NCBI GenBank assembly: GCA_964396475.1
Contig: CAYNFE010000001.1
Span: 69,474-133,473 of the forward strand
Source of the DNA: Candidatus Woesearchaeota archaeon
Lineage (GTDB): Archaea > Nanobdellota > Nanobdellia > Pacearchaeales > UBA284
Direction: 5' to 3'
DNA length: 64,000 nucleotides
This document shows, piece after piece, positions 30,001 to 50,366 of this stretch. Below the pieces are notes generated by a model, which did no database searches, was not told where the DNA came from, and was given only the letters and a program-made list of their open reading frames with translations. The position numbers and the translations under genes are program-made. The first letter of the stretch is position 1. The number at the start of each line of letters is the position of its first letter.

Positions 30001-33000
30001 TAGGAATTACAGATCCATTTAATGGTGAAACAAGATTTACAACTGGAGGTTCGATATCTCCAGTTATTGTTACAGTTATATTATAAACACTATCAAATGA
30101 ACTACCACCAAATTCACAAGTTGTTGTAACAGTTATGTCTGAAATTCCAACTGCAGCAGCTGTAACATTCCATTGTGTTATAATTGTAGTTCCGCTAGTG
30201 ATATTTCCTAGAACATTAACAGGAGTTGGGGTTGTTAATACAGTATTATTTGAGAAAGTTATTGTTGCATTACAGTTAACAACATCTCCACCAACAGCAG
30301 TGATATTAGCCTCAGTCAAGAAAACATCACTTAAGTTAAATACAGCATTATCATTTGGTTGAGTAATTATTGTTGTCGTATTTCCATAACCAGGGATAAC
30401 TTGTACAACAAACCATGTTGTCTCAGTAGTATTCCAATTATTACTAGTATCATTAGCAAAAATTCTAACACTATAATTTCCAACTTGCATAGTATTTATG
30501 AAGTCGTATAGATATTGGTCTACTGCCATTCCAGGACTCATAGTAAAATTATTCATTGTTAGATCAGGATAAGTAACTTGAGCAAGAACAGTATCTACAG
30601 CAACATTATCTCTTGCAAATGCTGACAATAAAGTATTTTCTGATTGATTTATGAATTGAGGTATTGCATTAACATTCCATACATCTGGAGGAATAATGTC
30701 AGGACCACTAACATTAACAATAAAAGTCCAATTCTCAACTGCGAAAGCACTATTGAAAGAATCATCAGTACACTCAACATTCCATAGATAAACTCCATTT
30801 GATAAGTTAGTATAGTTCCAATTTCCATTTGTTGCATTAGCAGTCTGTTGACTTCCGTCAATCTGCCATGCTCCACTTGTATTACTATAGATATTACAAT
30901 CTAGAAGTAAGTCCATATTATCTGTTACATTATATATTATAGTAACATTCTCATTAGTTACAGAGTTATTAGGTGGGAATATCAGATTTACAACAGGTGA
31001 TTCAGTATCATTAAGTACTGTAACATTAATCCAGTGTGTTTCAAAACTACTTGAATAATTCTGACTACCTGGATAAATAACACTAACATTATGTATTCCT
31101 GTTTGATTGAAACTTGTGATATTAGTTACAGTATAATTATCTACATTAATAAGCTGGGTGTCAAGATAGAGCTGAAGTTCATAAATTCCTTGTCTTGATT
31201 GTATGGCATCTGTATCTTCATTAGGATTAGGCATGCCATCAATCACAGGATACTCTTCTTGATGTGGACTAGGATGTACTGGAATAATTAAATAACCAGT
31301 CATATTAACAATATCATTTACACTAACAGTTATATTGTCATCAATTCCATTAAGTCTTAAGTTTACAAGAGAAAATGCAGGATTAACAATCAATATATTA
31401 TTTATAGATGCGGCACTCCAATTCTGATTTCCGCTCGTATTACAAACATATCCATAAGATCCTACACTAAGTAAGGAAACATCAGGATTATTTACAATCT
31501 GTCCATTTCTATATAAGTTAATTAAAACTTCATTATTATTAGCTGTGCAAGAAACATTTGTTGTTGTTGGATAAGTCACATTCCAGCTTGGTTGTGAGTC
31601 AAGTGTTAATATTGTTGTAGCAGGATCTATAATATATAAAGCAGAAGTGCTAGCTCCACTATAATTCTGTGTTGCTGTGACATTACATATATAATTATAG
31701 CCAGAAGGATTTGCAGCCAATGTAATAGGTAAATTATTTTCATTTGTTACATTAAAACCATCTCTCCATAATTCAGCATTAGCCTCAGGATTTGTACAAG
31801 AACATGAAGCTATGAATGGCTGTTGATCATAAGTAATAGGGCTCTGAGGAACAAAGTTTAATGTACATGAACTATTTGTCTGTCCAACTGTCAACCATCT
31901 TGTCAGACTTTGTTCAGTATAATTTTGTGAAGCAGGATAATAATATGTATAATTATATAATCCAACACCTAGCTGTGCTATCTCAGTTGCAGGACTTCCA
32001 CTTGCTACTATCTGAGAATCTCTGTAAAGTAATGCATTGCTAGCTCCTTGACTGATGTCTAGCCAACCAGTTGCATTTGTAGTTGAATTAAAAGGAACAC
32101 TCAAATCATTCTCTTGTCCATTTAATGCAAGATGTATTGTATGATTATCTTGATTTACAACATATAAACTAGAATTGCTTGCGCCATGATAATTCTGTGT
32201 TTCAGTAACATTACAAGTATAATTAAATATGCCTGCTGGAAGAGGAATTGGAATATTATTGTATTGTGTGATATTTACATCATATATCCAAAGTTCAGCT
32301 TGAGCTTCGGGGTTTGTACAATAACAAGAAGCATTCACATCCACTGGATAAACACTAGGACTTTCTGGATCAAAATTTAAGAAACAACTAGTATTAAGCA
32401 AAACATTGACAACACTAACATTCCATGCTAAAGCATCTTCTCCTCCTTTGTTATCATAAACAATAACATAAACATCATGAAGTCCAGAAGCATTGTAATC
32501 AGGCTGATAATCATAAGAAGAAATTGTTGAAACTTCCTGTCCATCTAAATTCCATGTATAATATAAAGGATCATTGTTAGGGTCAGAAGCCCAAATTTCA
32601 AAATGCAATGTCTGACCTTCATCAACACTTGGAATTAAATCTTGAGGAACATAATCATTAATAACAGGAGGTTGATTAATACCTTCGAACCAAATTGTTA
32701 TTCTATCAGATTCAACAACATGATTTCCTAAATCCTTTGTTTCTGAATAATAAGTATGATTTGCTGGCTGTGTTTCTGTCTTGACCTTAACAAAAGTACA
32801 TGTTGTCTGGCCACCACAATCCTTATATCCCCATTCTTGACCATCTTCATAAATTTTAATCCATCTTATTCCAGCATTTTCAAGATAATCAGTTGCAATA
32901 GCTGTTAATACTGCAGTTGTATTTGTATGTGTTGTATCAGAAAAAAACTGGAGTGTTGGAGGAGGATCAATTCTTCCATCATCAATTCCTACAGGACTGA

Positions 33001-33118
33001 TTCTATTTTCAAATCCTGGTTCAATAACATCAGTAGGGACAACAAAAGAACCAAGCAAGAGAGGTATGAGTATAAAAATTGGAATTAAACTCAAAATTAA
33101 TCTAGCTCTATTATTCAT
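27014..33118 (-). CDS. giant secreted repeat protein (2034 aa), adhesin/S-layer-like
   Basis: Uninterrupted 6.1 kb ORF with an N-terminal signal/TM (LILSLIPIFILIPLLLGSF). Contains a PKD-like segment (YYTWNLDGQEV), CARDB-like segments, internal near-identical repeats and very many N-x-S/T sequons. No C-terminal anchor. Confidence 0.8.
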   Translation of the reverse strand: MNNRARLILSLIPIFILIPLLLGSFVVPTDVIEPGFENRISPVGIDDGRIDPPPTLQFFSDTTHTNTTAVLTAIATDYLENAGIRWIKIYEDGQEWGYKDCGGQTTCTFVKVKTETQPANHTYYSETKDLGNHVVESDRITIWFEGINQPPVINDYVPQDLIPSVDEGQTLHFEIWASDPNNDPLYYTWNLDGQEVSTISSYDYQPDYNASGLHDVYVIVYDNKGGEDALAWNVSVVNVLLNTSCFLNFDPESPSVYPVDVNASCYCTNPEAQAELWIYDVNITQYNNIPIPLPAGIFNYTCNVTETQNYHGASNSSLYVVNQDNHTIHLALNGQENDLSVPFNSTTNATGWLDISQGASNALLYRDSQIVASGSPATEIAQLGVGLYNYTYYYPASQNYTEQSLTRWLTVGQTNSSCTLNFVPQSPITYDQQPFIASCSCTNPEANAELWRDGFNVTNENNLPITLAANPSGYNYICNVTATQNYSGASTSALYIIDPATTILTLDSQPSWNVTYPTTTNVSCTANNNEVLINLYRNGQIVNNPDVSLLSVGSYGYVCNTSGNQNWSAASINNILIVNPAFSLVNLRLNGIDDNITVSVNDIVNMTGYLIIPVHPSPHQEEYPVIDGMPNPNEDTDAIQSRQGIYELQLYLDTQLINVDNYTVTNITSFNQTGIHNVSVIYPGSQNYSSSFETHWINVTVLNDTESPVVNLIFPPNNSVTNENVTIIYNVTDNMDLLLDCNIYSNTSGAWQIDGSQQTANATNGNWNYTNLSNGVYLWNVECTDDSFNSAFAVENWTFIVNVSGPDIIPPDVWNVNAIPQFINQSENTLLSAFARDNVAVDTVLAQVTYPDLTMNNFTMSPGMAVDQYLYDFINTMQVGNYSVRIFANDTSNNWNTTETTWFVVQVIPGYGNTTTIITQPNDNAVFNLSDVFLTEANITAVGGDVVNCNATITFSNNTVLTTPTPVNVLGNITSGTTIITQWNVTAAAVGISDITVTTTCEFGGSSFDSVYNITVTITGDIEPPVVNLVSPLNGSVIPIENVTVIYNVTDNMDLLLDCNIYSDASGSWQIDGSQQTANATTDTYDYLNLPDGTYTWNVECIDDSFNSAFAIENWTFTINTTIPDIEPPVVNLIFPPNNSVTNENVTIIYNVTDNMDLLLDCNIYSNTSGAWQVDGSQQTANATNGNWNYNNLSNGVYLWNVECIDDAFNSAFAVENWTFIVNTSVIIHDVGIDNNYTNTVNGIRISYNGTAILDDPANLTQGLTYELKARVNNYGTQPETVNMTYYLVNSTHKIVLYTTQSVINVFTYPTYDWDTTGYELGTYNITLNATIIGFVDENPSDNERNRTINIISLVDLPPWWLNEQVNPISPVVYGSGPYDFSIEWLDDFGVDTVIFEFDGTNYTPVCNPGLPSLDTNCSFVFSDLAVGTYNYRWYANDTINQWNSTSLLTYIIMQDNHTIYLALNGQENDLSVLFNSTTNATGWLDISQGASNALLYRDSQIVASGSPATEIAQLGVGLYNYTYYYPASQNYTEQSLTRWLNVTQGTTVLNLSAQPGWNVTVGTETNITCQANNNEVLINLYRNDTLVASGYTLIYETATLPEGAYGYVCNTTGSQNWTAASVNNILIVSALFPGEVHLYLNGIENNLTIDYGTISNATGTTPYGYITLYRNGTMVANGTSPQSEIATLAAGYYSYTAVSNGDENHSSASVTYFLTINKANSSVTLYLNSLNSDIIITEGESVNHTGILNIPTTGDLSLLRNGTQFAFGASPLTDISVYNNPGYYNITAYYAGNENYSEGSATHFITVLEAIHDISVDSIELIKEVNGTNKSVSSSTAWLYDVVYVKANVSNVGNQNETNINVTLEDNSVPVDWQLINLDIGQTQEVTLLWNANNDNWRTVKVKSLPVPGETNLANNELSQDVRVWKVCDAIDCSIFRPTTNQSSYPLGQQFLVRSVIQNLWATQSFYDLRVELEVSSGLTILPTWPAIQWYDLAPSQFKIANWNVTSTTTGLKTLTSWAGNHEFSNNTQITIT
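28496..28756. repeat. intragenic repeat A, copy 2 (261 nt, near-identical to 31892-32152)
   Basis: Direct comparison: constant 3396-nt offset with only a handful of substitutions. Encodes ...NGQENDLSV.FNSTTNATGWLDISQGASNALLYRDSQIVASGSPATEIAQLGVGLYNYTYYYPASQNYTEQSLTRWL. Confidence 0.9.
29451..30047. repeat. intragenic repeat B, tandem copies 1 and 2 (~290 nt each)
   Basis: Encodes the ~100 aa module PPVVNL..P.N.SV...NVT.IYNVTDNMDLLLDCNIYS..SG.WQ.DGSQQTANAT...Y.NL..G.Y.WNVEC.DD.FNSAFA.ENWTF. Copy 1 (29451-29734) is near-identical to 30714-30997. Copy 2 is more divergent. Confidence 0.9.
30714..30997. repeat. intragenic repeat B, copy 3
   Basis: 284 nt, near-identical to 29451-29734 at a constant 1263-nt offset. 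Confidence 0.9.
31892..32152. repeat. intragenic repeat A, copy 1
   Basis: See 28496-28756. Confidence 0.9.
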
Positions 33119-34853: not shown

Positions 34854-36167
34854 ATGAAAATATTTTTTACTGTCTTAATTTTAATTCTTCTGTTACCTTC
34901 AGTATCTGCGATAGTGATAAATGAAATTTTACCTGATCCAGAGAGTGATTGGAATGGTAATGGACAGAATGAAACATATGCTGATGAATGGATAGAGTTA
35001 TTTAATACTGGGCAGACAAAAAATTTAACTGGGTGGAAAATAGGTGATAAGGTTGAGAATTATACTTTAAATCATATTATATGTTCTGGATGTTTTTTAG
35101 TTTTGTTTGGTTCTGAAACTTCTTTACAGTTGAATAACAATGATGAAACTGTTTATTTTTATGATAACAATAGTATTCTTATTGATTCTTATTCATATTC
35201 TTCTTCCTCTGATGACTTATCTTTTGGAAGATGTCCTGACGGTAATGCATCTTGGCAATCAAATTTAAATCCAACACCAGGACAAGCAAACAACTGTTCG
35301 CAACAACAGCAAGAAGAAAAAGAATTAAACTTAGATTATCCAGGGCAAGTCGAGTGTGAAGAAGAATTTTATATTGAGATTGAAGCTTCTGGTTTTGAAG
35401 ATGGTGATTATGATGTCAAAATAGATATTCTTAGTGAGAATGACGAAGAGAGAATAGGAAAAGTGTGGAATGAAGAAGATGAGAAATGGCAGTCCACAAA
35501 TAATTATATAATAGAAATTTTAGAAATTGAGAATGACGAAGGAGATGTAAAATTAAAATATAAGATAGAGGATTTTGAAGGAGATGCTATACTAAGGCCA
35601 AGGATAAGGAAAACAGGTTCAAGCTCTTATGAACAGTTTGATGATGAAGATATAGAAGTGGAATGTAATATCCAAGAGGAATCTGAGATCAAAATTCTAG
35701 AATGGCCTACAGAAGCTAGATTTGGTGAGGAGATTAAAGTAGAAATTGAAATTTATCGAGGAGATACAGCAAAATATGCAGTTTATATTTATGTTCAAGA
35801 CAATGAAGGATCAAAAATGAGTGATAAAATTAGTTTACATGCTGATGAAAAATTCCAGATATATACTGAAACTATAACATTGACACTTAAATGCGAGAAT
35901 GAACAAGGAACTTATGAAATTATTGCAGAAGGTTTTGATACTGAAGATAGAAAAGAAATAACAATAGAATCTTGTGAACCTGAATCTGAAGAACCTATGG
36001 TTGAATCTTCTAAAACTGAAACTACCAAGACTAAAACTTATCAATCTAGTCATTCATATCCTAGCTCTGTAGAATCAGAAAATCTTCTAATCAATAAAAC
36101 TTTACCTTATATTTTGTCTTCAATAGCATTACTTCTCGTCATTTATTTAATAATCAAGAAGATTTAA
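34854..36167 (+). CDS. C-terminally anchored surface protein with N-terminal lamin-tail domain (LTD)
   Basis: 437 aa. After the signal peptide comes IVINEILPDPESDW...DEWIELFNTGQTKNLTGWKIGD...ETVYFYDNNSILIDSYSY, an LTD pattern. An acidic middle region, a C-terminal TM and KKI follow. Confidence 0.7.
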   Translation: MKIFFTVLILILLLPSVSAIVINEILPDPESDWNGNGQNETYADEWIELFNTGQTKNLTGWKIGDKVENYTLNHIICSGCFLVLFGSETSLQLNNNDETVYFYDNNSILIDSYSYSSSSDDLSFGRCPDGNASWQSNLNPTPGQANNCSQQQQEEKELNLDYPGQVECEEEFYIEIEASGFEDGDYDVKIDILSENDEERIGKVWNEEDEKWQSTNNYIIEILEIENDEGDVKLKYKIEDFEGDAILRPRIRKTGSSSYEQFDDEDIEVECNIQEESEIKILEWPTEARFGEEIKVEIEIYRGDTAKYAVYIYVQDNEGSKMSDKISLHADEKFQIYTETITLTLKCENEQGTYEIIAEGFDTEDRKEITIESCEPESEEPMVESSKTETTKTKTYQSSHSYPSSVESENLLINKTLPYILSSIALLLVIYLIIKKI

Positions 36168-36202: not shown

Positions 36203-36676
36203 ATGGACCAAAAAGAAATAAGAGATAAGCTTGCACATGAATGGCTTCGTACCCATCTAATTTTTGAAATATTAGGAAAGCCAGCAGAACATATAGAGAA
36301 AGCAATGGATATGTTATTAGAAAAGCTTGCAGAAGAGAAAAATATAGAACTCTTAGATAAGAAAACCAATAAAGCAAAACCTGTAGAAAAAACAAAACAG
36401 GTCTTTACCACTTTTGCAGAAGCTGAAGTTCTTATTAATAAATTACCTCGTCTTATAGAAATTATTTTTGATTACATGCCTTCTTCAATTGAAATAGTGG
36501 AACCAACAGTATTGAAATTTAAAAATGAGGATGTGAATGCTTTGATAAATGATTTGGCTGCAAAACTTCACCACTATGATGCTATTTCAAAAAAATTAAA
36601 GATAGAGAGAGCTGCTCTTATAAAAAGACTCAAGGAAGAATTAGATAAGAAAGAAGAAGGAAAGGAAGAGAAATAA
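36203..36676 (+). CDS. hypothetical cytoplasmic protein
   Basis: 157 aa, helical and K/E-rich at the C-terminus. Preferred over the two antisense ORFs. Confidence 0.5.
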   Translation: MDQKEIRDKLAHEWLRTHLIFEILGKPAEHIEKAMDMLLEKLAEEKNIELLDKKTNKAKPVEKTKQVFTTFAEAEVLINKLPRLIEIIFDYMPSSIEIVEPTVLKFKNEDVNALINDLAAKLHHYDAISKKLKIERAALIKRLKEELDKKEEGKEEK

Positions 36677-36947: not shown

Positions 36948-39080
36948 TTAACGTCTTCTTATACTTGAGGGTCTCTGAAATTTTTTCTCATATTGTTTTG
37001 ATGCTTCTTTCAAGAATTCACCCATCTCTTTTCTTGGTTTTTTTCTTATTAGAATATAAATAATGATCAGTATAATTATTATTGCTGCAGATATTATTAT
37101 GCCCCAGGTTCTTCCAGGTGTTGCTTTCTTTTTGCAAGCATCAGCTGGCACACAACAAACAAATGTATCTTTTGCTGCAGTAATATTTCCTTCACAGATT
37201 TCATTTTCTTCTTCTCTACAGATTTTACCTCCTAATTCAGAACAAGTTTTTTCTTCTAAACCTATACTTGTAATATTTATAGTCATAGGAAGGGTTGTAG
37301 TTATTTTTTCTGAATTATATTTTGCTTCAGCTATAATTTCTCCTTCATAGACTCTTGCTATTACTGGTGAAAATGAAATTGTTATTGTTTCTTTTTCTCC
37401 TCTAATAATCTCCTCTATAAAACTTGGATCTATTCTCTCAACAACACCAATCAAGGCAGAACTGTAAGTTAGGGAAATATCTATAATATCTCTATCAAGT
37501 TTATTTTCTAATCTAATGCTAATTGTAAAAGGTCCTTCTGAAACATCTGCTGTTTTTGTGATATTTTTTTCAATGAAATAAAATCTTTTTTGTATCAGGC
37601 TTTCATTAAGCTCTGTAGTTTTATTTTCCCATTCTTGTTCTGTTTCATTTATAATCTCTTGCTGTTCACTCTCATTAAGCTCTTCTTCACTTGAACCCAC
37701 AGAACCATTTATCCCCTCCTGTCCAGTTTTTTCTGTAAATATCAAAATAGGGATTGAATAATCATAATGTTCCTGAGAAATTTTAGATCTGTAATCAAGG
37801 GCAAGGTTTTCAAAGATAGTTCTTCCATCAACTGTAGTTACTTGAGGAATATCAAATCTCAAATTTTTTATACCATTGACAGGCAAATTTGTTATAATAC
37901 TGGAATTAAGCATATTTGTTTCTATGACTATATCACTTATTCCTTTGTTCAATAAAATTAAATCAAAGGTTCCGAGACTTTCTGTTTTTATGATGCCTGG
38001 CCAAAATGCAAGTAAGGGTTCTATGTTTTTATTTTGAAAACCAAAGACAAGCATGAATGATTCATCCACTAGAGATAAAGTTCCTTGTTCTAAAAGCCAG
38101 CTTTCAGATTTTTCTATAGAATCTAAATAACTTGAGTTTGAATAATTATTAGATTTTAAAATGAAAGTAGCGAGACTAGTTGCTTTTATATCTGATTCAT
38201 AACTAGTTAGATTTTTTGGCCACCATCCACTAGTTGTCTGTGAATTTAGAATATGATTTAATATTTCAGAATCTTTTGTCAAATAATAAATAATAGCTTT
38301 TTCTTCGATATTAATAGCATTTTCTTTCAGCCAAGAAATTCCAGCAGCATTAACACTATCATTCTTATCTAATCTTCCTGTCATTGCAAGAGAAAATAAA
38401 GCATAAGCTGTAGCTTCTGTATCACATGGACTGCCCCAGCATCCAGTATTATTATCTTGAGAAGTTTCTAGAATGTCTTGCATTTCCTGTCTTACTAAAC
38501 TATCTTTAAAATTTATAAGAGTAAGGGCATTTAATCTCATACTACATTCTTGATTTATGCAAGAATCATCTCTCTCCTTGTAAGTTGTCAATGCTTCCTC
38601 TTCCAATATATGTGAAAGTGCACCTGCAGAAAGAATATGTTCTTCTAGATCTAGAGTAAGCCATTTATTTTCAACTCTAGGTCTTAAATTTTCATATCTT
38701 GATGTTGTTATCTTTTTAATAGTTAAAGGTGTATTTGCAACATATAAACTTCCATCTTTACAAGTTCCTCTGACTCTCAACAAATAATCATTAGGTTCAT
38801 TAGGTAAGTCAAACCATAAGAAATATTTTGTATCTGTTACTTTTGAGATAAAAATATTAATAGGAAGTTGAGTGCTTCCTCTATAAAAAAAGATATCGCT
38901 AGAAAGAATGTCTCTCATAACATCAGCATCTAATTCAACCTGTACTGTTTCTTCTGGAAGATAAACTGTTTTTGCAAGGTTCAAATTAATGCAAGCTAGG
39001 GCACTAACATTACTTATACAAAAACAAAAAATGAAAATCAATACTATTATTATAAAAAAAATAAAATAATTCTGCCTCAT
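36948..39080 (-). CDS. membrane-anchored surface protein with prenyltransferase/terpene-cyclase-like alpha/alpha-toroid region and one six-Cys module
   Basis: 710 aa with an N-terminal signal. Segments CWGSPCDTEATAYALFSL, AGISWLKEN and NSQTTSGWWPKN resemble QW/SQHop-cyclase-type repeats. The juxtamembrane CSELGGKICREEENEICEGNITAAKDTFVCCVPADAC is followed by a TM and a basic tail. Confidence 0.6.
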   Translation of the reverse strand: MRQNYFIFFIIIVLIFIFCFCISNVSALACINLNLAKTVYLPEETVQVELDADVMRDILSSDIFFYRGSTQLPINIFISKVTDTKYFLWFDLPNEPNDYLLRVRGTCKDGSLYVANTPLTIKKITTSRYENLRPRVENKWLTLDLEEHILSAGALSHILEEEALTTYKERDDSCINQECSMRLNALTLINFKDSLVRQEMQDILETSQDNNTGCWGSPCDTEATAYALFSLAMTGRLDKNDSVNAAGISWLKENAINIEEKAIIYYLTKDSEILNHILNSQTTSGWWPKNLTSYESDIKATSLATFILKSNNYSNSSYLDSIEKSESWLLEQGTLSLVDESFMLVFGFQNKNIEPLLAFWPGIIKTESLGTFDLILLNKGISDIVIETNMLNSSIITNLPVNGIKNLRFDIPQVTTVDGRTIFENLALDYRSKISQEHYDYSIPILIFTEKTGQEGINGSVGSSEEELNESEQQEIINETEQEWENKTTELNESLIQKRFYFIEKNITKTADVSEGPFTISIRLENKLDRDIIDISLTYSSALIGVVERIDPSFIEEIIRGEKETITISFSPVIARVYEGEIIAEAKYNSEKITTTLPMTINITSIGLEEKTCSELGGKICREEENEICEGNITAAKDTFVCCVPADACKKKATPGRTWGIIISAAIIIILIIIYILIRKKPRKEMGEFLKEASKQYEKKFQRPSSIRRR

Positions 39081-39118
39081 TTTAATAGATAGAGAAAAAA
39101 GAGTTAATAAATTTTTTC

Positions 39119-41530
39119 TTATTTCTTTGACATCTTTTTTAACTTTTTCAATGTTTTTTCAAGATCTGATTCTGCTTTTCCTCTGGTTCTTATTTTTGCT
39201 TTTGGTGCCTCAGGCAGTTTTGGCTTTGCCATAGATGCAGGCATGGGTCTCATAGGTCTTGACATAGCAGCTTTTGGAACTGCTCTAACTGGACCTGGAC
39301 CTCTTGCTGGCCTAACTGGTCCCGGTCGTCTAGCCATTGTTGCTGGAATTCTTGTTCTTGAAGGCATGACTGGTCTTCTAGGAGGCATTGTTCCTGGTGG
39401 GAAAAGTTCTAGCTTTTTCTTTGGTTTTGGTTTTTTGAATTTGAAGAAATATAATAATACAGCTGCGATAACAACCAATATAATAATTAACCATAACCAC
39501 CACAAGCTAGCTGGCTTTTTACACTCACCCTGGCTAGGACAACATCTTGTGGTATCACTAGCTTCTATATAATCAACAGAACATTTTTCATCGCCAATAC
39601 AGGTTGTTCCTGCCTGTCTAGCACAAGTTCCAACACATCTACCAGTACAACAATTCTCAACATCTCTTGTTTTTTGTATAAACCCATCAAAACAATCTTC
39701 ACCAATATCACACTCTTCTCCTATATTACTACAACTAACATCTTCTACACATTCTACAGTTGTTCCTACACAACACATGTCAGTATCTTGTGTTGTTGTG
39801 AAACCGACAGTATTCCAGGTTATACTATTCACACAAACCTCTCCAGAGCTACATACAATACCAATATCAATACAATTTTGTTCAGAAGCATTTGCAGGAA
39901 CACAAGAACCTAAACAACAATCACCATCTAGTGTATAGACAGTATCGCCGTAACACTCTTCTCCAGCTTCACAGACAGCTCCTCCAGCTTCGCTACATTC
40001 TGCATCAGCGTATTTTTTACAACAATAATCTTCCCAGTCAGGACAAACTATAGTCCAAACATCAAATTCATCTGCTTCACACTGTTCTTTACAGACTCCA
40101 CCAGCATCACTGCATTCTATAGTTCCTCCTCCAAGCCAATGACAACAAATCTGTCCTGTTGGGCAATCAAAAGGAAGTTCTATCCATTCTGGAGCACAAG
40201 TTAAATTTTCAGTACATTCATAAAAAGGACCTTGATCCTCACATGCTCCTCCTACTCCGCCAGTTCCAGGACAGAGATAAGGCCAAAATACCCATAAAGC
40301 AAATGCAGTATCTCTAATAGAATTTTTTCCAGCCTCCCCATAAGCACTTGAGACAAGATCTCCATTTGGTTCTTGATTAGTAATTAAATAATTTTTTGCC
40401 TTGCTTATAGCATCTGGGCCTGTTCCACCTAAAGCTAAGCCAGCATGAGCAGTATCATAAACTCTTCCATAGACAATAGGTTGTATCAACCAATAGCCTT
40501 TATCTATGCCTACAATTTTTTGTGCATTTAGTATTGTATCAGAATATCTTGACTGGGTTGTCAAAGGATATAAGAAAGATTCAGGGAAAAATTTTATATT
40601 TTCTTCTGCAAAAACTACAAGATAAGGAATGAGCAGATTTGCATTCTCAGTATCTCCTTGTCTTGATAAAACATATGCTGTCCATGCAGTTCCTTCATAA
40701 TCGCAAGTTCCAATGTTAAGAGGATTAGATTGACAATAAGATGGAACTCTTAATTCTAGAGGTTGTGGTTGGTCTTCAATCTTATTTGAACCTGGCACTC
40801 CTGGTTTGCCACTTTTAGTCTCGCTTGAAACATGCCAAATCTCGCTGCCTGCTTTTTTGTAAAGCAGAGAAGTTCTATAGACTTCAGTATCACTCCAACA
40901 CTTAATAGTATATATATTACTATAACACTGGGAACTTTTCTCTACTTCAAACCAATAATCTCTATAAGTTCTTTTGAAACAGTCAGTAGTATTCAACATC
41001 TCAACAGTTTTATCATCATTAACTTTAAATGCTAATTTCTCATCATGTCCAGCATAAATTATTGAACAGGTAGCATTATGACCTCGCTCTACATCTATCT
41101 GTAAATACCAATCAATTCCTTGAGTTTGAGTCATATTTTGTCCAAGAAGCCAGTTCTTTATTTTGGTAGTATTTTCATCAAATTCATCCAAAGCCATTTT
41201 TGCAAGAGCTGTTTCAGTCAACAGACACTGACTCTCTGAGTTTGGTCTAGGTCCAGCCCCCCAACATTTTATTTCTGGTCCAACATAGGCTTTGGAGTTC
41301 AAAGCGCTTCTCCCAGGATCAGTAAGAGTAGTATTACAGTATAAAGCAAGGAGAGAGAAAGCATGTTGTTTATTATTCAATTCAGCCCAGTGTCCTCGTA
41401 CTTTATTTATAAGCCAATCATAAGCTTCAGCAACTTTATCTTCTTCAGTTTCTTGGGCTAAAGTAAAACTAATACTGGAAATAAGAATTAAGATAAGAAT
41501 AGTACAAAAAACTACACTCTTTTTTATCAT
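39119..41530 (-). CDS. membrane-anchored surface protein: alpha/alpha-toroid-like region, six tandem six-Cys modules, TM, Pro/Arg-rich cytoplasmic tail
   Basis: 803 aa with an N-terminal signal. Toroid-like repeats (AYDWLINKV, IKNWLLGQNMTQTQGIDWY, GTAWTAYVLSRQG, AKNYLITNQEPNGD) precede the Cys array at aa 420-670. The TM LWWLWLIIILVVIAAVLLYFF and a 107 aa tail follow. Confidence 0.6.
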   Translation of the reverse strand: MIKKSVVFCTILILILISSISFTLAQETEEDKVAEAYDWLINKVRGHWAELNNKQHAFSLLALYCNTTLTDPGRSALNSKAYVGPEIKCWGAGPRPNSESQCLLTETALAKMALDEFDENTTKIKNWLLGQNMTQTQGIDWYLQIDVERGHNATCSIIYAGHDEKLAFKVNDDKTVEMLNTTDCFKRTYRDYWFEVEKSSQCYSNIYTIKCWSDTEVYRTSLLYKKAGSEIWHVSSETKSGKPGVPGSNKIEDQPQPLELRVPSYCQSNPLNIGTCDYEGTAWTAYVLSRQGDTENANLLIPYLVVFAEENIKFFPESFLYPLTTQSRYSDTILNAQKIVGIDKGYWLIQPIVYGRVYDTAHAGLALGGTGPDAISKAKNYLITNQEPNGDLVSSAYGEAGKNSIRDTAFALWVFWPYLCPGTGGVGGACEDQGPFYECTENLTCAPEWIELPFDCPTGQICCHWLGGGTIECSDAGGVCKEQCEADEFDVWTIVCPDWEDYCCKKYADAECSEAGGAVCEAGEECYGDTVYTLDGDCCLGSCVPANASEQNCIDIGIVCSSGEVCVNSITWNTVGFTTTQDTDMCCVGTTVECVEDVSCSNIGEECDIGEDCFDGFIQKTRDVENCCTGRCVGTCARQAGTTCIGDEKCSVDYIEASDTTRCCPSQGECKKPASLWWLWLIIILVVIAAVLLYFFKFKKPKPKKKLELFPPGTMPPRRPVMPSRTRIPATMARRPGPVRPARGPGPVRAVPKAAMSRPMRPMPASMAKPKLPEAPKAKIRTRGKAESDLEKTLKKLKKMSKK

Positions 41531-41542
41531 ATTTTTCTAAAC

Positions 41543-42934
41543 TCACATATATTTAAAAGACTTTCGTTTACTTTGTCTTTTCTGTTTTCTCTTTTTTCCT
41601 TTTTCTTCTCTACTCTGTCTTTCTGCAATCATAGCTCTTCTTAAAACATAATTCACAGGATTCTTTATCTTCTTACATATTGGAGGATGAACATCAGTTG
41701 GGCAGACACCCAAATCAAGATAATAAGCATTTAAATTGCAATTAGGAGGCAATCTAGGTTCTTGTTTTTTAAACCATTGCAATTGTGTTGCAATATAATT
41801 TTCTTTAAGTGCCCTATAATTTAATTTATTCCATTTCTTAATTCTGGATTCAACATCTTCCATACTTAAACCAAGAGACCTAAAAAAATTGATAAGAATA
41901 AATAGAGCTCTTTTCCTTCCATCATGTTTCATTCCAAGCAAGATATTTTTTATACAAGGTGGAAACATTTCTTCATTTAGTTTATCTATTTTAATTTTTG
42001 GAAATGGAGTTTTTTTCTTTATTTCTTTTTCTTTGATTTCTTCTCGCGCTTCTTTTCTTGCTTTCCAATCTATGGCTTGAACAAATAACTCTTTGGCTTC
42101 TCCTTGCTCAGGTTCAGACATGAAAGGTTTAACAAAAATTCTCTCAGGTTTTGCCCATGCTGGATGAAAGGCTTTAATTTGGTCAGATCTTATGACTACA
42201 CTAGCTAGTCCTGTTCTTTCATGTAAAGAGTATGCCATTCTATAGAGGTGTCTTGGGGCAATAAGCACAGTATCAATTTCCAGAATACTAAAAGGATTGA
42301 ATCTAGCTTCTCCTTCATCAATTAAAGCCTCGATAGGTTTTCCAGTAGCTTTAGATATTTCTTTTAAACTGCTCAATTTTAAAATTCTCTTAGCAAGATC
42401 TTGATATATCATATCTTTAAGGTAAGCTGCAATCAACCTTGGACCTTCTGGAAAAAAATCTTTTACATCCATCTCATTAATTTTTGAAGGAAAGGCCTTG
42501 AATTTAAGACCGATATGAAAACCACTGCCTCCACTAAATTTCAACCCAAAATTTCTTACACCATGGAAATACAAAGCTTCGCAGAGGAGCCAGGCTGCTA
42601 TTTTACTGTATTCAATAAATTTGCAATCTATGTCCAAAATAAGGTCCCATCCTTGTCTCATCTTATTTAGCTGTTCTATTCTTAGATCAGTGCTTAAGTC
42701 AAGAGGAGTGTTCCATAACTCTTCAGAGACATGAAAAGATGTTGCTCCTCTGGCTGCAAGATTAGCAATATCTTGTGGATATTCAATTATATCGGGTCTC
42801 TTCCCAAAAGTATCAAAATAAAGAGGAATGGTTTCTTTATTTTTTGCTTGCTCAGCTAAGGCAGCTTGTACATCTTTTCTTAAATAATAAAAATAAGCAG
42901 TTTTTCTTAACCCTTCCAACTTTTTCATTAACAA
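41543..42934 (-). CDS. priSL: fused archaeo-eukaryotic DNA primase (PriS catalytic domain plus PriL Fe-S C-terminal domain)
   Basis: AEP motifs LILDIDCKF, FSGGSGFHIGL and EIDTVLIAPRHLYRMAYSLHERTG. C-terminal FPPCIKNIL...GRKRALFILINFF...PPNCNLNAYYLDLGVCP...PPICKKIKNPVNY matches the 4-Cys PriL-CTD. Confidence 0.8.
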   Translation of the reverse strand: MLMKKLEGLRKTAYFYYLRKDVQAALAEQAKNKETIPLYFDTFGKRPDIIEYPQDIANLAARGATSFHVSEELWNTPLDLSTDLRIEQLNKMRQGWDLILDIDCKFIEYSKIAAWLLCEALYFHGVRNFGLKFSGGSGFHIGLKFKAFPSKINEMDVKDFFPEGPRLIAAYLKDMIYQDLAKRILKLSSLKEISKATGKPIEALIDEGEARFNPFSILEIDTVLIAPRHLYRMAYSLHERTGLASVVIRSDQIKAFHPAWAKPERIFVKPFMSEPEQGEAKELFVQAIDWKARKEAREEIKEKEIKKKTPFPKIKIDKLNEEMFPPCIKNILLGMKHDGRKRALFILINFFRSLGLSMEDVESRIKKWNKLNYRALKENYIATQLQWFKKQEPRLPPNCNLNAYYLDLGVCPTDVHPPICKKIKNPVNYVLRRAMIAERQSREEKGKKRKQKRQSKRKSFKYM

Positions 42935-43030
42935 AATTAGAAGTGAAAATTTAAATAATTACTTATGATTAAAAATATTCAATAAGAAACACAATAACAC
43001 AATAAACTTTAAAAAGTTCTGAACTCTAAG

Positions 43031-43824: not shown

Positions 43825-44649
43825 ATGGATAAAAGAGGACAGGTTACTCTGTTTATTATTATTGCCATTGCCATCGTAGCTGCCGCGGTTCTGGCTGTCG
43901 TTTTCTGGCCCGCTATATCTACAATGTTTATGTCTCAACAACAAGCAGAAACTTTTTTAGCTAGCCAGGCAGAACCTTTGAGAGATTCTGTCTATGATTG
44001 TGTTTATTTCGCAAGTTATCCTGCTCTTGAAAGAATGGGTTCACAAGCAGGCTATTATGATACTACTGGCCTAGATTCATTATATTTTACTGGTTCTGAT
44101 TATGTTGTTGTCATGTTTAAAGACTCTGCAAAACAAAGAATAAACAAACTTCCAAGCAAGACACAAATAGAAGAGCAATTTTCTCTCTTTTTAGAAAGAG
44201 AGGGTTATTTTGAGATTGATGATTGTTTGAATGATTTTTCTTCTTTTAAGAGAAAAATGGATGTTGAACCCGGACAAAAAGAGATAACAGCATCAATAAA
44301 TCCTGATTTTATTGTATTAGAAGTAGATTGGCCTATAAAAATAAGCAAGCAGACAGCAAGAGCAACTGCTGAGCAGACAGTCAATCAAAGACCAGTAACT
44401 TTCCTCATACCTTTAGGAAATTTATGGTATACTGCTAATAGGATTGTTGATTGTGAAACGCAGATAGATTGTGATTATGAGGGTCTTAAATGGGATGAAG
44501 AGACATGGGATGATCCTTACACACTTCAATATGTAAGCAGAGATGCTCTAAGTATTAATGAAAATCAAATTGTCTTTTTACTTGAATCAATTCCCTCAAG
44601 AACAGGAGAATTTCCATATAAATTTAATTTTGCAATAGATAGGACATAA
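43825..44649 (+). CDS. class III signal peptide (type IV pilin-like) protein, paralog A
   Basis: The N-terminus MDKRGQVTLFIIIAIAIVAAAVLAVVFW has a charged-Gly-Gln junction plus a hydrophobic helix. Paralogous to 52772..53521. Confidence 0.65.
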   Translation: MDKRGQVTLFIIIAIAIVAAAVLAVVFWPAISTMFMSQQQAETFLASQAEPLRDSVYDCVYFASYPALERMGSQAGYYDTTGLDSLYFTGSDYVVVMFKDSAKQRINKLPSKTQIEEQFSLFLEREGYFEIDDCLNDFSSFKRKMDVEPGQKEITASINPDFIVLEVDWPIKISKQTARATAEQTVNQRPVTFLIPLGNLWYTANRIVDCETQIDCDYEGLKWDEETWDDPYTLQYVSRDALSINENQIVFLLESIPSRTGEFPYKFNFAIDRT

Positions 44650-44665
44650 AAAATAAAATAAAAAA

Positions 44666-46480
44666 ATGAAAAAAATATTTACAATACTAGTGATGATTTT
44701 GATAGTTAGTATGACATTCAGTGTATCATTGTCCTTATCTTCTAAACAAGTTGAAGCTCAGGAACAAGAGGGCTGTTGTCTTGATACAGGAACAGGACAA
44801 CAGTGTGTGAGAACAACAAGAACAGAGTGTCCAGGAAGATTTTTTACTGGTCCTCCATATGATTGTTCTAATATACCTGAATGTACTCCTCAGACATGCA
44901 TTCCAAAAAAGAAGGATGAACCTTGTCTGAGAAATAAACCAGCTGCTGAATGTAGAGCTATGGGTGGAGTTCCAGAAAATCAACCTTTAGAATCAATTCC
45001 TCAATGTAAACCAGGTTGCTGTATTATTGCAGATGGAGTGAAGGCAGAAGTCTTGCAATATAGACAGTGTGAAAATCTTACTACAGCCTTAGGTTATGAA
45101 TTAAATATGATGGAATTTAGAGATGATATAACAAGTCAGGTAGAGTGTAAGAAAGTTGGTTCTCCAAGTGATTTAGGTTGCTGTGTTTTAGGGGCAGGTT
45201 CTTGTGCTTATGGTCCAAGACGAGAGTGCCAGGAAGGAAATTTTGTGCCTTTACAGGGTGGCTATTTTTGCAGAGATGTTGCTGACTGTGCTTTAACTAC
45301 TAACTTTTATTATGATTGTGGAAAATTACCTGGAAGTGAAACAGATATTTATTGGTTTGATAGTCAAGGCAATCAAGAAGAAATGACTGAAGATGGAGAT
45401 TGTAATTATCCTGATGCTCTATGTACTAAAGACAATATTGGAAATGTTTATTGTATGAGTACTAAATGTGAAAATATCTTTTTAGAAGACCAAATCATGT
45501 CAGATCATCCACCAAAAGTTGATATTAGAACAAGAACAGTTAATCTACTTACAGGAACTAGTGTGTGTTATAATTTTTATACAGCTTATGGAGATGAGAG
45601 AATGCAAGAAAGATCAACAGGCTTGCAGAATCAGATTCTTCACTGCTCATTTGGTAAGATAGATGTTGAGGGTTTAGGCCAGGATAGAGAAAAATTATGT
45701 ACTGAGGGAGGAGATTCTCCTGCTCTAATCCATGGAACAGTCAAAGAAAATAAATGGGATGAATGCAGTAAATGCGGATCTTCAGAAGGATTATTTGGAT
45801 TTGGTAATGAGGTTGGTGATTTCTTAGGGCCAGCTTCCATAGGATTGCCAACAGGAACAATGTTTTCAAGTCTATTTGGAGATTATTGTAATAAAGATAA
45901 GTGTGAGGGATTAAATGGAAATCCTGGTTATGGTGATTGTTATTATCATGAAGATGTTGGCAAAATAGGTTTTGGAACACCTATAGGTTCTTGTGATCCA
46001 ATATATCCACCAGGACTTGCAAACAGTCAGTGTACAGATTGTGGGGGTGGAGGAGATGCAGTATGGAATCTTTGTACAGAAGCAGAGTGTTATAGTAAAG
46101 GAGACTGTCAATTCCAGCCAGCTAGCACATGGTTGAGAGCAGGAACATTCATATGGTTCGCACCAGGCCTTGCAGTTGGAGAAAGAATAAGCCAGATAAT
46201 TCCAGAATGTATTATAACCACATCTTACTGTGCAATCAACAAACTAGATCCAGCATGCTTACACTCTTCAAATTATAATATATTAAGTTGTCTAGCAGAT
46301 AGAGGAAAAGCTTATGCAATCTGGGCGCCAGTATGGATAATCAATGGCAAGCTTATGGGGGCAGCCTGGAATGCCTTAAGTGGAGAGGTAACAAATAAAA
46401 TTGTATCAGAAGGAAAGAAAGCTGTTTTTGGTGGCGGCGAACAAGGAGGAGAACAAGGCAACCAAGGAGGTAATGAATAA
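44666..46480 (+). CDS. Cys-rich secreted protein of unknown function (604 aa)
   Basis: Signal peptide, then three GCC modules (EGCCLDTGTGQQC, PGCCIIADGVKAEV, LGCCVLGAGSCAY). Many further Cys, two amphipathic/hydrophobic C-terminal segments and a Gly/Gln/Glu tail. Confidence 0.7.
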   Translation: MKKIFTILVMILIVSMTFSVSLSLSSKQVEAQEQEGCCLDTGTGQQCVRTTRTECPGRFFTGPPYDCSNIPECTPQTCIPKKKDEPCLRNKPAAECRAMGGVPENQPLESIPQCKPGCCIIADGVKAEVLQYRQCENLTTALGYELNMMEFRDDITSQVECKKVGSPSDLGCCVLGAGSCAYGPRRECQEGNFVPLQGGYFCRDVADCALTTNFYYDCGKLPGSETDIYWFDSQGNQEEMTEDGDCNYPDALCTKDNIGNVYCMSTKCENIFLEDQIMSDHPPKVDIRTRTVNLLTGTSVCYNFYTAYGDERMQERSTGLQNQILHCSFGKIDVEGLGQDREKLCTEGGDSPALIHGTVKENKWDECSKCGSSEGLFGFGNEVGDFLGPASIGLPTGTMFSSLFGDYCNKDKCEGLNGNPGYGDCYYHEDVGKIGFGTPIGSCDPIYPPGLANSQCTDCGGGGDAVWNLCTEAECYSKGDCQFQPASTWLRAGTFIWFAPGLAVGERISQIIPECIITTSYCAINKLDPACLHSSNYNILSCLADRGKAYAIWAPVWIINGKLMGAAWNALSGEVTNKIVSEGKKAVFGGGEQGGEQGNQGGNE

Positions 46481-46833
46481 TGTCAATAGGAAAATATATT
46501 GCTGTAGGATTAATAAGTGCTGTTGTAGGAACTGGTATAACATATCTTGCAACTACTTCATATTATCAAAATCAAGTCAATAATCTACAACAAGAAAATA
46601 TTGAACTAACAAAAGAGAATACTAAACTCGAAAAAAAGTATGAAGGTATGAAAAATTTATTTTTAGAATCAATATCTCTGGAAATAAAAAGTATGGAAGA
46701 AGATTTAAAAGAAGAAGATAAAAGCCAAAAATTTAGCTGGAAAGAATATGAAGAAGAAAAAGAAGCCATAAAAAAAGAAATTCAAAAAGAAATCGGACCA
46801 AATGAACTTGAGAAAAAACTGACTGAAAAATGA
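46480..46833 (+). CDS. single-pass membrane coiled-coil protein (117 aa)
   Basis: N-terminal TM (IAVGLISAVVGTGITYLA) followed by heptad-like K/E/L sequence. The start overlaps the preceding stop by 1 nt, and its stop overlaps the next start by 4 nt. Confidence 0.6.
   Translation: MSIGKYIAVGLISAVVGTGITYLATTSYYQNQVNNLQQENIELTKENTKLEKKYEGMKNLFLESISLEIKSMEEDLKEEDKSQKFSWKEYEEEKEAIKKEIQKEIGPNELEKKLTEK
46732..46781. repeat. 50-nt segment repeated at 47724-47773 (encodes FSWKEY-acidic-EAIKKE)
   Basis: tttagctggaaagaatatgaagaagaaaaagaagccataaaaaaagaaat versus tttagttggaaagaatatgatgatgaagaagaagccataaaaaaagaaat. Confidence 0.8.
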
Positions 46834-49800: not shown

Positions 49801-50366
49801 GGCAGCCAGAGATAGAAGTAACAAGCGAGCCAAGAGTGACAGAATGTAAATACAAGACTTATCAGGGTCATGGTCCTAAAACCCCTCCAGCATGGGATGA
49901 GATGTATTATATAGATGAATATATGGATATAGTGCATTATGGCAAACATAATGAAACACTTAATGCAACAAAAACAGGAATGCTTCATACATTATGGGCT
50001 AGATGCAGTGATAAATGGGCTATTGAGGCTATAAATTTCACTAAATTCTATACTATATTAGATGAAGATTCTCCAATAATCATAAGAATGTATCATGATA
50101 CTACAGTAGGAGATTATCTACTTATTGAGACAGATGAAAATTCAACTTGTGTTTATGGAACAAGCTCTAGTATTGCATGTAATTATAATTTCACTGAGGG
50201 AACAACAATGACAGGAAACAATGAAACAATACATGCAACTTATTGGCAGCTTGATCATCTCTATTATATCAAATGTGTAGATGAATGGGAGAATTATCCT
50301 GGCAGAGCTCCTGAAGCTAACGCATGTACAGCAATAATAAATCCTTACGAAGTTCCTCCACTATAA
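46830..50366 (+). CDS. giant Cys-rich secreted protein of unknown function (1178 aa)
   Basis: Signal peptide (IFFVSILALTIILSALPLLNA) and a coiled-coil segment, then the linker PPRTTTPPKPEPES. Six-Cys-like modules and a CxxC..CT...C module precede a long C-terminal region. No TM anchor. Confidence 0.75.
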   Translation: MKNKSLKIFFVSILALTIILSALPLLNAQKFETIRKQEDPIVANLSLARLNLYQEDMEDGRYRIKCDITGAEYTMDHKYEYQVNIIVEDLNTGKEKRSTATLKKHKGIFDPGWDTRTRWELFKDQMFLPVTLGIGNALQIRSRMANKGQSFGEAINPMADFWPTTKGAYLIIGPEVEKANIVCNYYYKKPGRAQVFEGPVYILTTSFTKTLTGPVELWQEPKQGDKVAAELQKIETKLIDIRVYKKMAGDIGRPDLIPRVKALEKKLEEYKTELETNGESALASDAGITSQAIAITGYFSWKEYDDEEEAIKKEMSGTGKGRGLEPPRTTTPPKPEPESNCVKNGLGFCTLEENCKPPERIWKLSSDKDDCPPKFINSGMTRVEQVCCAENKDIECSRVMGDSSYECTDVSGWESKMVTNYCPERGRATCPGDLRCCKPPTCGSEGGIVVKTRPEEIEKCKQPTKSVFKIEEGICCEPKEAEREAPKKVGTLGRLSVCVGKYWLWGKENDITFLEAAKKSLSEVTGVSGLPTINVEQFKTLTPEQKKEQTDKWKEQLFNKRKEILDDEKLKDQAEKIAEAEDSLEKTGMIHAMTWSEISSNIISCALGAYKAGRLAFQGGERSMGKCSAEMPLPGTEACLSCNKDPYRICTKERCAILGTCIAVPTEKGDQYNCIPGECEELGLVGMEDGIIEWYINGEMAPESPKQADISQGNIRTDIGEIPFNTKMIIVNLTTDKPAQCRWILDERGAEFENMEEFEDNYYPMLPGGIPGWQYAGIMLPGDVARDEEHRIFIKCNNACNIAHGASYDQNYIEFKLAKKPDQLPPIIVHIDPPNHAVINGDWKNLTVSFWLDELGNCKYSDKSMNYTITYEEMKYFNEKPNENSSVIFGRCYPDECIHLTGAQCTHCELELDLSKGYEELNWTEMPPEMQEQLEESLSNITKLFNFMIRCEDTAHNIMIEDDTLDYIFMTMPGYNISVIRPEMDERTYDRQPEIEVTSEPRVTECKYKTYQGHGPKTPPAWDEMYYIDEYMDIVHYGKHNETLNATKTGMLHTLWARCSDKWAIEAINFTKFYTILDEDSPIIIRMYHDTTVGDYLLIETDENSTCVYGTSSSIACNYNFTEGTTMTGNNETIHATYWQLDHLYYIKCVDEWENYPGRAPEANACTAIINPYEVPPL

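Follow-up and report, generated by a model that had tools for sequence, protein, structure and literature searches.

The 64,000-nucleotide (nt) stretch analysed here, hereafter the window (contig CAYNFE010000001.1, positions 69,474 to 133,473, of a Candidatus Woesearchaeota archaeon), carries on its minus strand two adjacent genes, designated A and B, which encode predicted type I membrane proteins with an alpha/alpha-toroid in the ectodomain. The window is AT-rich, with a GC content of around 30 %, and holds a housekeeping set including ribosomal proteins, aminoacyl-tRNA synthetases, PCNA and Hjc. Three open reading frames (ORFs) lie in series in the order primase, A and B (Table 1), with intergenic gaps of 12 nt between primase and A and 38 nt between A and B. 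The first ORF was identified as primase by matches to DNA_primase_lrg (2e-6) and DNA_primase_S (0.0065) in Pfam and to PriL (5e-11) in NCBIfam. A preliminary description of the window had placed both genes behind priSL, on the same strand and with these gaps; this holds, the primase being one fused PriS/PriL ORF, and the peptides quoted there are all present, i.e. CWGSPCDTEATAYALFSL (residues 214-231) and NSQTTSGWWPKN (279-290) in B, and GTAWTAYVLSRQG (280-292) and YLITNQEPNGD (381-391) in A.

Table 1. Positions of A, B, their parts and neighbouring features in the window (AF2, AlphaFold2; HMM, hidden Markov model; TM, transmembrane; aa, amino acids)
Feature	Positions	Strand	Remarks
Gene A, predicted type I membrane protein	39119..41530	-	803 aa; toroid head, Cys-rich stalk, TM helix, Pro/basic tail
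A, putative signal peptide, about residues 1-25	41456..41530	-	...FTLA|QE, predicted cleavage; hydrophobic 1-26; model helix 5-21
A, toroid, N-terminal five helices, residues 29-130	41141..41446	-	ETALAK 105-110; AF2 and Foldseek
A, beta-sandwich inside toroid, residues 132-267	40730..41137	-	WYLQID, four conserved Cys; AF2 strands
A, toroid, C-terminal helices, residues 276-420	40271..40705	-	AF2 helices 278-415, alignment; 8PAK and squalene-hopene cyclase profile matches fall here
A, stalk of six six-Cys beta mini-modules, residues 429-674	39509..40246	-	module HMM (five); pLDDT 73-96
A, TM helix, residues 677-698	39437..39502	-	hydropathy segment 672-701; AF2 helix 677-698
A, cytoplasmic tail	39122..39436	-	disordered Pro/Arg/Lys-rich linker and conserved C-terminal helix 785-803; AF2
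Gene B, predicted type I membrane protein	36948..39080	-	710 aa; N-terminal hydrophobic signal 1-33
B, Ig-like beta-sandwich, residues 31-121	38718..38990	-	N-terminal; AF2 strands
B, toroid, residues 126-347	38040..38705	-	12 helices, paralogous to the A head; AF2, hhalign, Foldseek
B, two beta-sandwich 'legs', residues 357-466 and 500-604	37269..38012	-	acidic disordered linker 467-496; AF2
B, juxtamembrane six-Cys module, residues 609-653	37122..37256	-	HMM i-E 1.3e-14; BLASTP to A modules
B, TM helix 657-680 and conserved tail	36951..37112	-	tail KPxKEMxEFLxExSKxYEKxFQRP; hydropathy segment 655-682, AF2, alignment
TATA-like box TTTAAATA	41550..41557	-	perfect match in the last codons of the primase, centred 23.5 nt before the ATG of A
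Fused PriS/PriL primase (context)	41543..42934	-	463 aa; true start probably ATG 42928
p274 and Cys-rich 604-aa protein (context)	43825..44649 and 44666..46480	+	homologues of both also adjoin primase-less A'
LTD-domain protein and MJ0538-like protein (context)	34854..36167 and 36203..36676	+	convergent on B; syntenic in nearly all loci

Structures were predicted with AlphaFold2 from family alignments and compared with the PDB by Foldseek. The mean predicted local distance difference test score (pLDDT) is 85.9 for A and 81.8 for B; block means reach 91-98 over residues 31-420 of A and 77-97 over the toroid of B, the ectodomains as such lying at around 90-97, and each model holds one toroid of around 12 helices. 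The best match of A was 8PAK, a single-domain 'squalene-hopene cyclase' (E 1.5e-3, TM-score 0.53 normalised to the target), followed at ranks 2-14, except rank 11, by chains of AprG (E 4e-3 to 2.5e-2, TM-score around 0.47-0.49 to the target). Further matches include alpha2-macroglobulin, C5, C3d, intrinsic factor and transcobalamin, the last two at E 0.15-0.28 and a probability of 0.3-0.69, with no sequence match. Apart from scattered low-probability matches to beta-sandwich parts, the top matches of A are 6-hairpin alpha/alpha toroids, and their E-values are modest because the query is long, multi-domain and insert-bearing. The top matches of B are chains of C3, C3b, alpha2-macroglobulin, C5 and C4 (E 4e-11 to 1e-8 over around 750-830 columns); since the TM-score is only around 0.25, B has the domain order of these chains in a different packing.

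Sequence profiles point in the same direction for A. The A-family profile matches 8PAK at 2e-4 to 3e-4 and the squalene-hopene cyclase (SHC) of Alicyclobacillus at 4e-3, and single members among 20 family heads weakly match the Pfam models SQHop_cyclase_C (1.9e-4 at best) and SQHop_cyclase_N (1.6e-3 at best); one A-family member also matches Pfam TED_complement weakly, at 0.044. Two QW-like motifs occur in the A family, i.e. L-x3-Q-x3-G-Y-W and A-K-x-Y-L-L-x2-Q-x3-G-x-W, which correspond to residues 334-347 and 378-392 of A, the second being degenerate in the window copy. Of 67 members, 7 have the strict QW pattern and 47 the loose form Q-x(2-5)-G-x-W. Therefore, the alpha/alpha-toroid fold proposed in the preliminary description is borne out by confident models, by Foldseek and by independent profile matches to SHC-like proteins, and neither a different fold nor a clear glycoside hydrolase family with intact catalytic residues was found in its place. 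Single-sequence searches of the PDB with A and B returned nothing, the B-family profile gave only a beta-sandwich match in the PDB (E 0.17), Foldseek against viral structures gave no match (best E 0.05, probability 0.12), and no PDB entry matched the whole architecture (TM-score of around 0.25 or less normalised to the query).

In the model of A, the N-terminal toroid helices span residues 29-44, 53-62, 67-79, 104-116 and 122-130 (pLDDT 91-98). The beta insert that follows has the invariant residues W141, C155, C184, C202 and C211, and the C-terminal part of the toroid is invariant at CDYE 276-279, PYL 302-304, YDT 358-360 and RDTA 406-409. The invariant or near-invariant residues of the head gather at the starts of the inner helices, namely E-T-A (105-108), C-D-Y-E-G-T-A-W (276-283), P-Y-L, Y-D-T and R-D-T-A-F (406-410). 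Regional conservation, expressed as the mean identity of 66 aligned homologues to the A of the window, is 0.44 for the N-terminal and 0.48 for the C-terminal half of the toroid, 0.41 for the beta insert, 0.38 for the Cys stalk and 0.31 for the tail linker, and highest of all regions in the last 23 residues (0.53); the toroid head is thus the best-conserved part of the ectodomain. In the tail, pLDDT is below 50 at residues 699-781, followed by a helix at 785-802, whose terminal motif E-x-[ED]-L-E-[KE]-T-L-x-K-L-K-K is kept even in homologues of 30 % identity.

The C-terminal helix of A (residues 785-803, positions 39122-39178 of the minus strand) reads AESDLEKTLKKLKKMSKK, with the family motif E-x-x-L-x-x-T-L-x-x-L-K and a Pro-rich linker before it. 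The MIM1 motif of ESCRT-III is (D/E)xxLxxRLxxL(K/R), and the spacing of the terminal-helix motif matches this pattern. Coupling of the A tail to an ESCRT system was nevertheless rejected as a candidate, the case for it being this motif resemblance, and DPANN archaea are described in a review as FtsZ dividers (PMC7617429).

The preliminary description had assigned one architecture to both proteins. A hydrophobic N-terminal signal, a toroid, one or more Cys modules, a single C-terminal hydrophobic segment corresponding to the TM helix and a Lys/Arg-rich tail are indeed common to A and B, but the likeness is only approximate: B adds an Ig-like domain and two further sandwiches, while A has a 136-residue sandwich within the toroid which the B of the window lacks. 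An HMM of a 38-48-residue six-Cys unit recognised five canonical copies in A (residues 470-674) and one in B (609-653), with no match in any other ORF of the window; a sixth, divergent module of A (429-468) was missed by the HMM and was assigned by eye from the sequence and the beta elements of the model. Paralogy of the two heads, likewise claimed earlier, is marginal by BLASTP (E 6e-4 and 2e-3 for A versus B) and clear by profile-profile comparison with hhalign, in which A 30-424 and B 122-368 align with a probability of 99.6 % (E 8.7e-25). Both ectodomains are probably extracellular and stabilised by disulfides. A has 47 cysteines and B 14, those of the heads being conserved at positions consistent with disulfide pairs, as suggested by their co-occurrence, and there are 7 N-glycosylation sequons in A and 15 in B.

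Homologues of B fall into two size classes. The long class (690-835 aa) has the Ig-like domain and the toroid, as in the window, whereas the short class (around 400-490 aa), to which the majority of B orthologues belong, matches only the C-terminal sandwiches, Cys module, TM helix and tail and has no toroid. Therefore, two toroid proteins side by side, as initially described, are present in the window and in a subset of lineages, but most B orthologues have no such domain. Since toroid-less B orthologues still accompany A, the constant role of B is to be sought in its legs, module, TM helix and tail, and the cytoplasmic tail is almost invariant among homologues. A beta insert of 84-98 residues, corresponding to A 132-267, follows B residue 209 (region 38452-38454) in 18/21 homologues and is missing from the B of the window and from P0122, P0124 and P0139.

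A search of 5.8 billion proteins returned more than 339 homologues of A and 22 of B, all unnamed or 'hypothetical'; those with a named source come from metagenome-assembled genomes of Candidatus Pacearchaeota, in which A and B have adjacent locus tags. Among clusters formed at 50 % identity, 910 were matched by the profile of the A head, 778 of them at E <= 1e-10, and in the best 150 of these 910 the head domain is always N-terminal, most proteins having 580-970 residues. Confirmed loci numbered 377 when each GTDB species was represented by a single genome. Among the 80 of these that were retrieved, 78 carry archaeal titles, mostly Pacearchaeota, Woesearchaeota, Nanoarchaeota and Nanoarchaeia, with some titled only 'archaeon'. 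A contig titled Bacillota (DATKUW010000034.1, L039) holds A, primase, B and the MJ0538-like gene, and one titled Bathyarchaeota (JAIMAA010000075.1, L052) holds p274 and A only; both are probably mis-binned DPANN contigs.

Synteny was analysed by calling ORFs in the fetched loci (82 after removal of redundant ones) and assigning them with family HMMs and jackhmmer. A near-universal block emerged, in which PCNA, p274 and a Cys-rich protein are read in one direction, primase, A and B diverge from them in the other, and an LTD gene followed by the MJ0538-like gene converges on B. Primase lies upstream of A on the same strand in 61/69 loci with enough sequence, the gap being at most 100 nt in 32 loci and above 500 nt in 23 others, and B lies downstream of A in 68/82 loci (65 on the same strand, median gap 61 nt). 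In three loci (L038, L046 and L047) B, the MJ0538-like gene and the LTD gene are inverted together with respect to A, and B is therefore tied more closely to the MJ0538-like gene than to A there. Some genomes harbour a second paralog, A' (CP061211, loci L006 and L040; JAVZYK01, loci L008 and L032), whose head, stalk, TM helix and Pro-rich tail correspond to those of A. Its gene stands in divergent orientation next to a second p274 gene and to one for a Cys-rich membrane protein of 1176 aa; primase, PCNA and B are all missing there. Because the A' cluster does without primase and PCNA, the recurrent neighbour of A-type genes is the envelope set rather than the replication genes.

The relationship with the primase was also considered at the level of transcription. 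A TATA-like octamer (TTTAWATA, at most one mismatch), scored in 81 orthologous loci and binned by the distance of its centre to the start of A, is present at 18-29 nt in most loci, with 57 % of them in the 18-23-nt bin and 27 % in the 24-29-nt bin (the two may overlap); the 6-11-nt bin has 22 %, and no bin from 30 nt upstream onwards exceeds 7 %. Together with the box in the window, this sequence pattern suggests that A is transcribed from a promoter of its own as a leaderless mRNA, with read-through from the primase also possible. Therefore, the adjacency to the primase stressed in the preliminary description exists and is conserved, but it probably amounts neither to a functional link nor to an obligatory one in transcription, given the position-conserved TATA-like box of A and the A' cluster without primase. 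A similar TATA-like box lies at 42948-42955 on the minus strand, 23.5 nt before ATG 42928, which suggests that the primase starts at this ATG and not at the TTG 42934 listed as ORF start, again with leaderless transcripts. The 38-nt gap between A and B (39081-39118, minus strand) has no TATA-like box within one mismatch and contains a T6 run, CTCTTTTTTCTC, of a type able to act as an archaeal terminator.

The catalytic and thioester motifs that could be expected in such a fold, i.e. CGEQ, DxDD and DDxxD, had been noted as missing, and none of them is present in the heads of A or B. CGEQ was found in 0/20 and 0/22 family heads, the sole C-x-E-Q being CKEQ at A 480-483 inside a Cys module of the stalk, and D.DD occurs in 1/20 family heads, at non-conserved places; DDxxD is absent from the family heads as well. 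A weak local HMM alignment, not significant alone, places I-R-D-T-A of A, with the invariant R406 and D407, at the D-V-D-D-T-A position of SHC. A and B had no meaningful match in Pfam or NCBIfam, SQHop_cyclase included, and the models, with a single toroid per protein, show no two-barrel (beta-gamma) arrangement of class II terpene cyclases. As regards protein prenyltransferases, there was no Prenyltrans match at E <= 1 and none among the top 50 Foldseek matches of A, and Zn ligands were not identifiable. Terpene-cyclase or prenyltransferase catalysis was therefore rejected, DxDD, DDxxD and Prenyltrans matches being missing. A thioester was rejected as well: in the segment C276-D-Y-E279 a Glu follows the Cys by three positions (i and i+3), and its layout thus recalls C-G-E-Q, but no CGEQ is present, C276 always co-occurs with the invariant C266 (probably as a disulfide), and Glu cannot form the bond spontaneously. 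LanC-like proteins had no match in the Pfam, PDB-sequence or Foldseek lists.

Compared with known toroid proteins, A is closest to SHC-type enzymes (8PAK of Cystobacter fuscus, 8PAJ, and the A. acidocaldarius SHC, 1GSZ/2SQC), 8PAK being likewise a single toroid of similar size. The A family has [D/E]-T-A helix starts in common with this group and, apparently, QW-like motifs of the form A/K-x-x-[YW]-L-L-x-x-Q-x-x-x-G-x-W. In contrast, A and B are predicted to be secreted, membrane-anchored and disulfide-bonded and have a beta-sandwich inserted in the barrel, no DxDD and no second (beta/gamma) domain, and they fall under the Pfam SQHop_cyclase thresholds. With complement C3/C4/C5 and the alpha2-macroglobulins, whose toroid is the thioester domain (TED), they share a toroid flanked by beta-sandwiches, predicted in A and B to be extracellular; B has this layout by structural similarity, with a TM-score of only around 0.25; on the other hand, there is no thioester motif, MG-ring, bait region or CUB split by the TED, and the B head derives from the A head. 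Rather than the seven or more MG domains, bait/ANA region and TED-split CUB of alpha2-macroglobulin, the models show three sandwiches in B and one inserted sandwich in A. Since the head of B duplicates that of A and most B orthologues are headless, its C3-like order is weak evidence for membership in this family and may have arisen by domain fusion. The thioester-less TED of C5 can serve purely as a binding module. AprG (9LFY/9LFQ/9LFI/9C9B; a transaldolase of apramycin biosynthesis according to its depositors) resembles A as a small single toroid, and its crystallisation with GlcNAc/GalNAc indicates a toroid subtype able to bind sugars; it differs as a cytoplasmic biosynthetic enzyme of an actinomycete, with 12-14 % identity to A and no sequence-level match. 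Integrin alpha/beta, a heterodimeric adhesion receptor whose head stands on Cys-rich or Ig-like legs and is anchored by a TM helix with a short, conserved tail, may serve as a functional analogy in layout only, the Cys-module stalk of A and the beta-sandwich legs of B taking the corresponding places; no homology was detected, the head folds are unlike, and an A-B heterodimer is a proposal. A search of the literature linking DPANN to macroglobulin, squalene-hopene cyclase, 8PAK or AprG found nothing relevant.

Among the neighbours, the p274 family has a conserved N-terminus, [KR]-[GAS]-Q-[VI]-T-[LI]-F-[IV]-I-I, i.e. a class III or type IV-pilin-like signal. Besides the p274 copy of Table 1 (with MDKRGQVTLFIIIAIAIV), the window has a second one at 52772-53521 on the minus strand (with MNKNKRGQVTLFIIIAIVIV), and homologues occur across L001-L085; the gene is syntenic with PCNA and also adjoins the primase-less A'. 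Large Cys-rich proteins with no Pfam match are encoded by the 604-aa gene of Table 1 and at 46830-50366 on the plus strand (1178 aa); in the two paralogous clusters alike, the 604-aa family keeps its synteny with p274, and the 1176-aa protein of the A' cluster (L040, 2569-6099), equally without a Pfam match, has a multi-TM central region. Further away, the minus strand encodes at 27014-33118 a secreted 2034-aa protein with many N-x-S/T sequons and long near-identical internal repeats (a block of around 85 residues twice and one of around 100 residues three times); it is a candidate giant surface protein, and a CARDB protein of 587 aa (25249-27012) follows it. Two lamin-tail-domain (LTD) proteins are encoded on the plus strand, at 17276-18085 and in the syntenic block beside the MJ0538-like gene; one is fused to a staphylococcal-nuclease domain and is likely a secreted nuclease, while the other adjoins the MJ0538-like gene and is syntenic.

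Taken together, we tentatively favour, without great confidence, the view that A and B form a non-catalytic, stalked and possibly heteromeric surface binding complex with conserved cytoplasmic tails. They would be subunits of an envelope complex specific to the Pacearchaeota/Woesearchaeota lineage and not enzymes. A would present an SHC/TED-type toroid head, held off the membrane by a rod of six disulfide-rich modules, and B would contribute the beta-sandwich legs and, in this sub-lineage, a second, duplicated head beside that of A. The head may bind a conserved ligand or partner through the invariant ring at the inner-helix N-termini (E279, Y303, D359, R406 and D407), A and B may pair via the juxtamembrane module that they have in common and via their TM helices, and the complex may be coupled to an intracellular partner by the cytoplasmic motifs conserved in both. 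The combination of a conserved head and conserved cytoplasmic motifs agrees with a receptor or organiser whose ligand is constant and whose partner is intracellular, and agrees less well with a passive coat or an adhesin under rapid diversification. The non-catalytic view is supported by the missing catalytic motifs, and the pair by its occurrence in the 68 loci mentioned above and by the common Cys module; the neighbours in both paralogous clusters are envelope proteins, i.e. the pilin-like p274 and Cys-rich membrane proteins. Three points weigh against this proposal: invariant Glu, Asp, Arg and Tyr at inner-helix N-termini are also typical of an (alpha/alpha)6 glycosidase/lyase active site; AprG, among the best structural matches of A, is an enzyme crystallised with GlcNAc/GalNAc; and the adjacency of A and B could stem from very slow genome rearrangement and not from contact, PCNA and primase being in the same block.

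As an alternative, A (not B) would be an extracellular enzyme that cuts or modifies a glycan, such as a host cell wall, extracellular polymeric substances or its own glycocalyx, via E279, D359 and D407 with R406 and Y303. In favour of this, the invariant acidic and aromatic residues are found at the inner-helix N-termini, A' retains them and the B head has lost most of them, as would be expected for an enzyme with a pseudo-enzyme, and the structural neighbours of A include AprG and, weakly, GH105 and GH76. We consider it rather unlikely, as no glycoside hydrolase (GH), polysaccharide lyase or other enzyme family matched in Pfam, NCBIfam or PDB sequence searches, the GH matches in Foldseek are weak (probability 0.47-0.63, E around 0.2-0.4), inner helices starting with [D/E]-T-A are a structural hallmark of the fold in general, and the toroid, which has around 240 residues if the insert is left aside, is smaller than usual for a GH barrel. 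It also seems doubtful that A and B are the S-layer or main surface lattice, i.e. self-assembling membrane-anchored glycoproteins with no specific external ligand: the C-terminal TM anchor and stalk, the paired genes, the sequons and the near-universal presence in the lineage would suit this, and a known micrarchaeon S-layer is cited in PMC10936187, but such proteins usually diverge fast, whereas the A head keeps invariant polar motifs over around 30 % identity and both proteins have conserved cytoplasmic motifs. Moreover, giant repeat proteins such as the nearby 2034-aa protein are equally good lattice candidates.

It is improbable that, as asked in the preliminary description, the toroid captures isoprenoids, or some other hydrophobic compound, out of the membrane of a host on behalf of a cell unable to make them. 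In favour of this, proteins that bind squalene and prenyl diphosphates have the same fold, the sequence shows affinity to SHC, the stalk would put the head around 10-20 nm from the membrane, and DPANN symbionts are reported to take up host lipids (bioRxiv 10.1101/2023.12.06.570485). Against it, the conserved residues are polar or charged and, judged from sequence, form no hydrophobic funnel, the substrate cavity of SHC lies between two domains where A and B have one each, and no lipid-transfer partner was identified; the premise of a genome without lipid synthesis is not established, as a survey reports mevalonate-pathway genes in Pacearchaeota (PMC10936187). It is tempting to speculate, with little confidence, that A, B, p274 and the neighbouring Cys-rich membrane proteins make up an undescribed, lineage-specific host-contact apparatus, in which the toroid would capture an isoprenoid lipid or glycan of the host envelope and the tails, including the MIM1-like helix of A, would relay engagement to a membrane-remodelling or cytoskeletal partner. 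Least probable is a thioester-less protease trap or opsonin of the alpha2-macroglobulin/complement type, formed by B with A to guard the cell surface. The long Foldseek alignments of B and the single TED_complement match in the A family speak for it, but there is no CGEQ and no bait region, B has three beta-sandwiches versus seven or more MG domains, the TM-score is low, and the B toroid duplicates the SHC-like head of A; with toroid-less orthologues in the majority, moreover, the C3-like order is not constant in the B family. Regardless, the surface binding complex described above remains our preferred reading.

The toroid fold superfamily itself is already known, while the A/B family is uncharacterised, outside Pfam and NCBIfam and unnamed in all sources. 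What appears to be new is the way in which the parts are combined: a toroid, predicted to be secreted, encloses a beta-sandwich and is followed by a stalk of Cys modules, a TM helix and a conserved tail. A and B thereby add a presumably secreted, disulfide-stabilised and insert-bearing branch to the SHC/TED toroid superfamily, and B shows that a C3-like domain order can go together with a head that is paralogous to one of the SHC-like type. Having a confident predicted fold and delimited conserved sites on both sides of the membrane, the two proteins are experimentally approachable. Pacearchaeota and Woesearchaeota are abundant, uncultured and have small genomes, and the A/B pair, as one of the few large surface proteins that are near-universal and syntenic across the lineage, bears on how these archaea contact their environment or a host.

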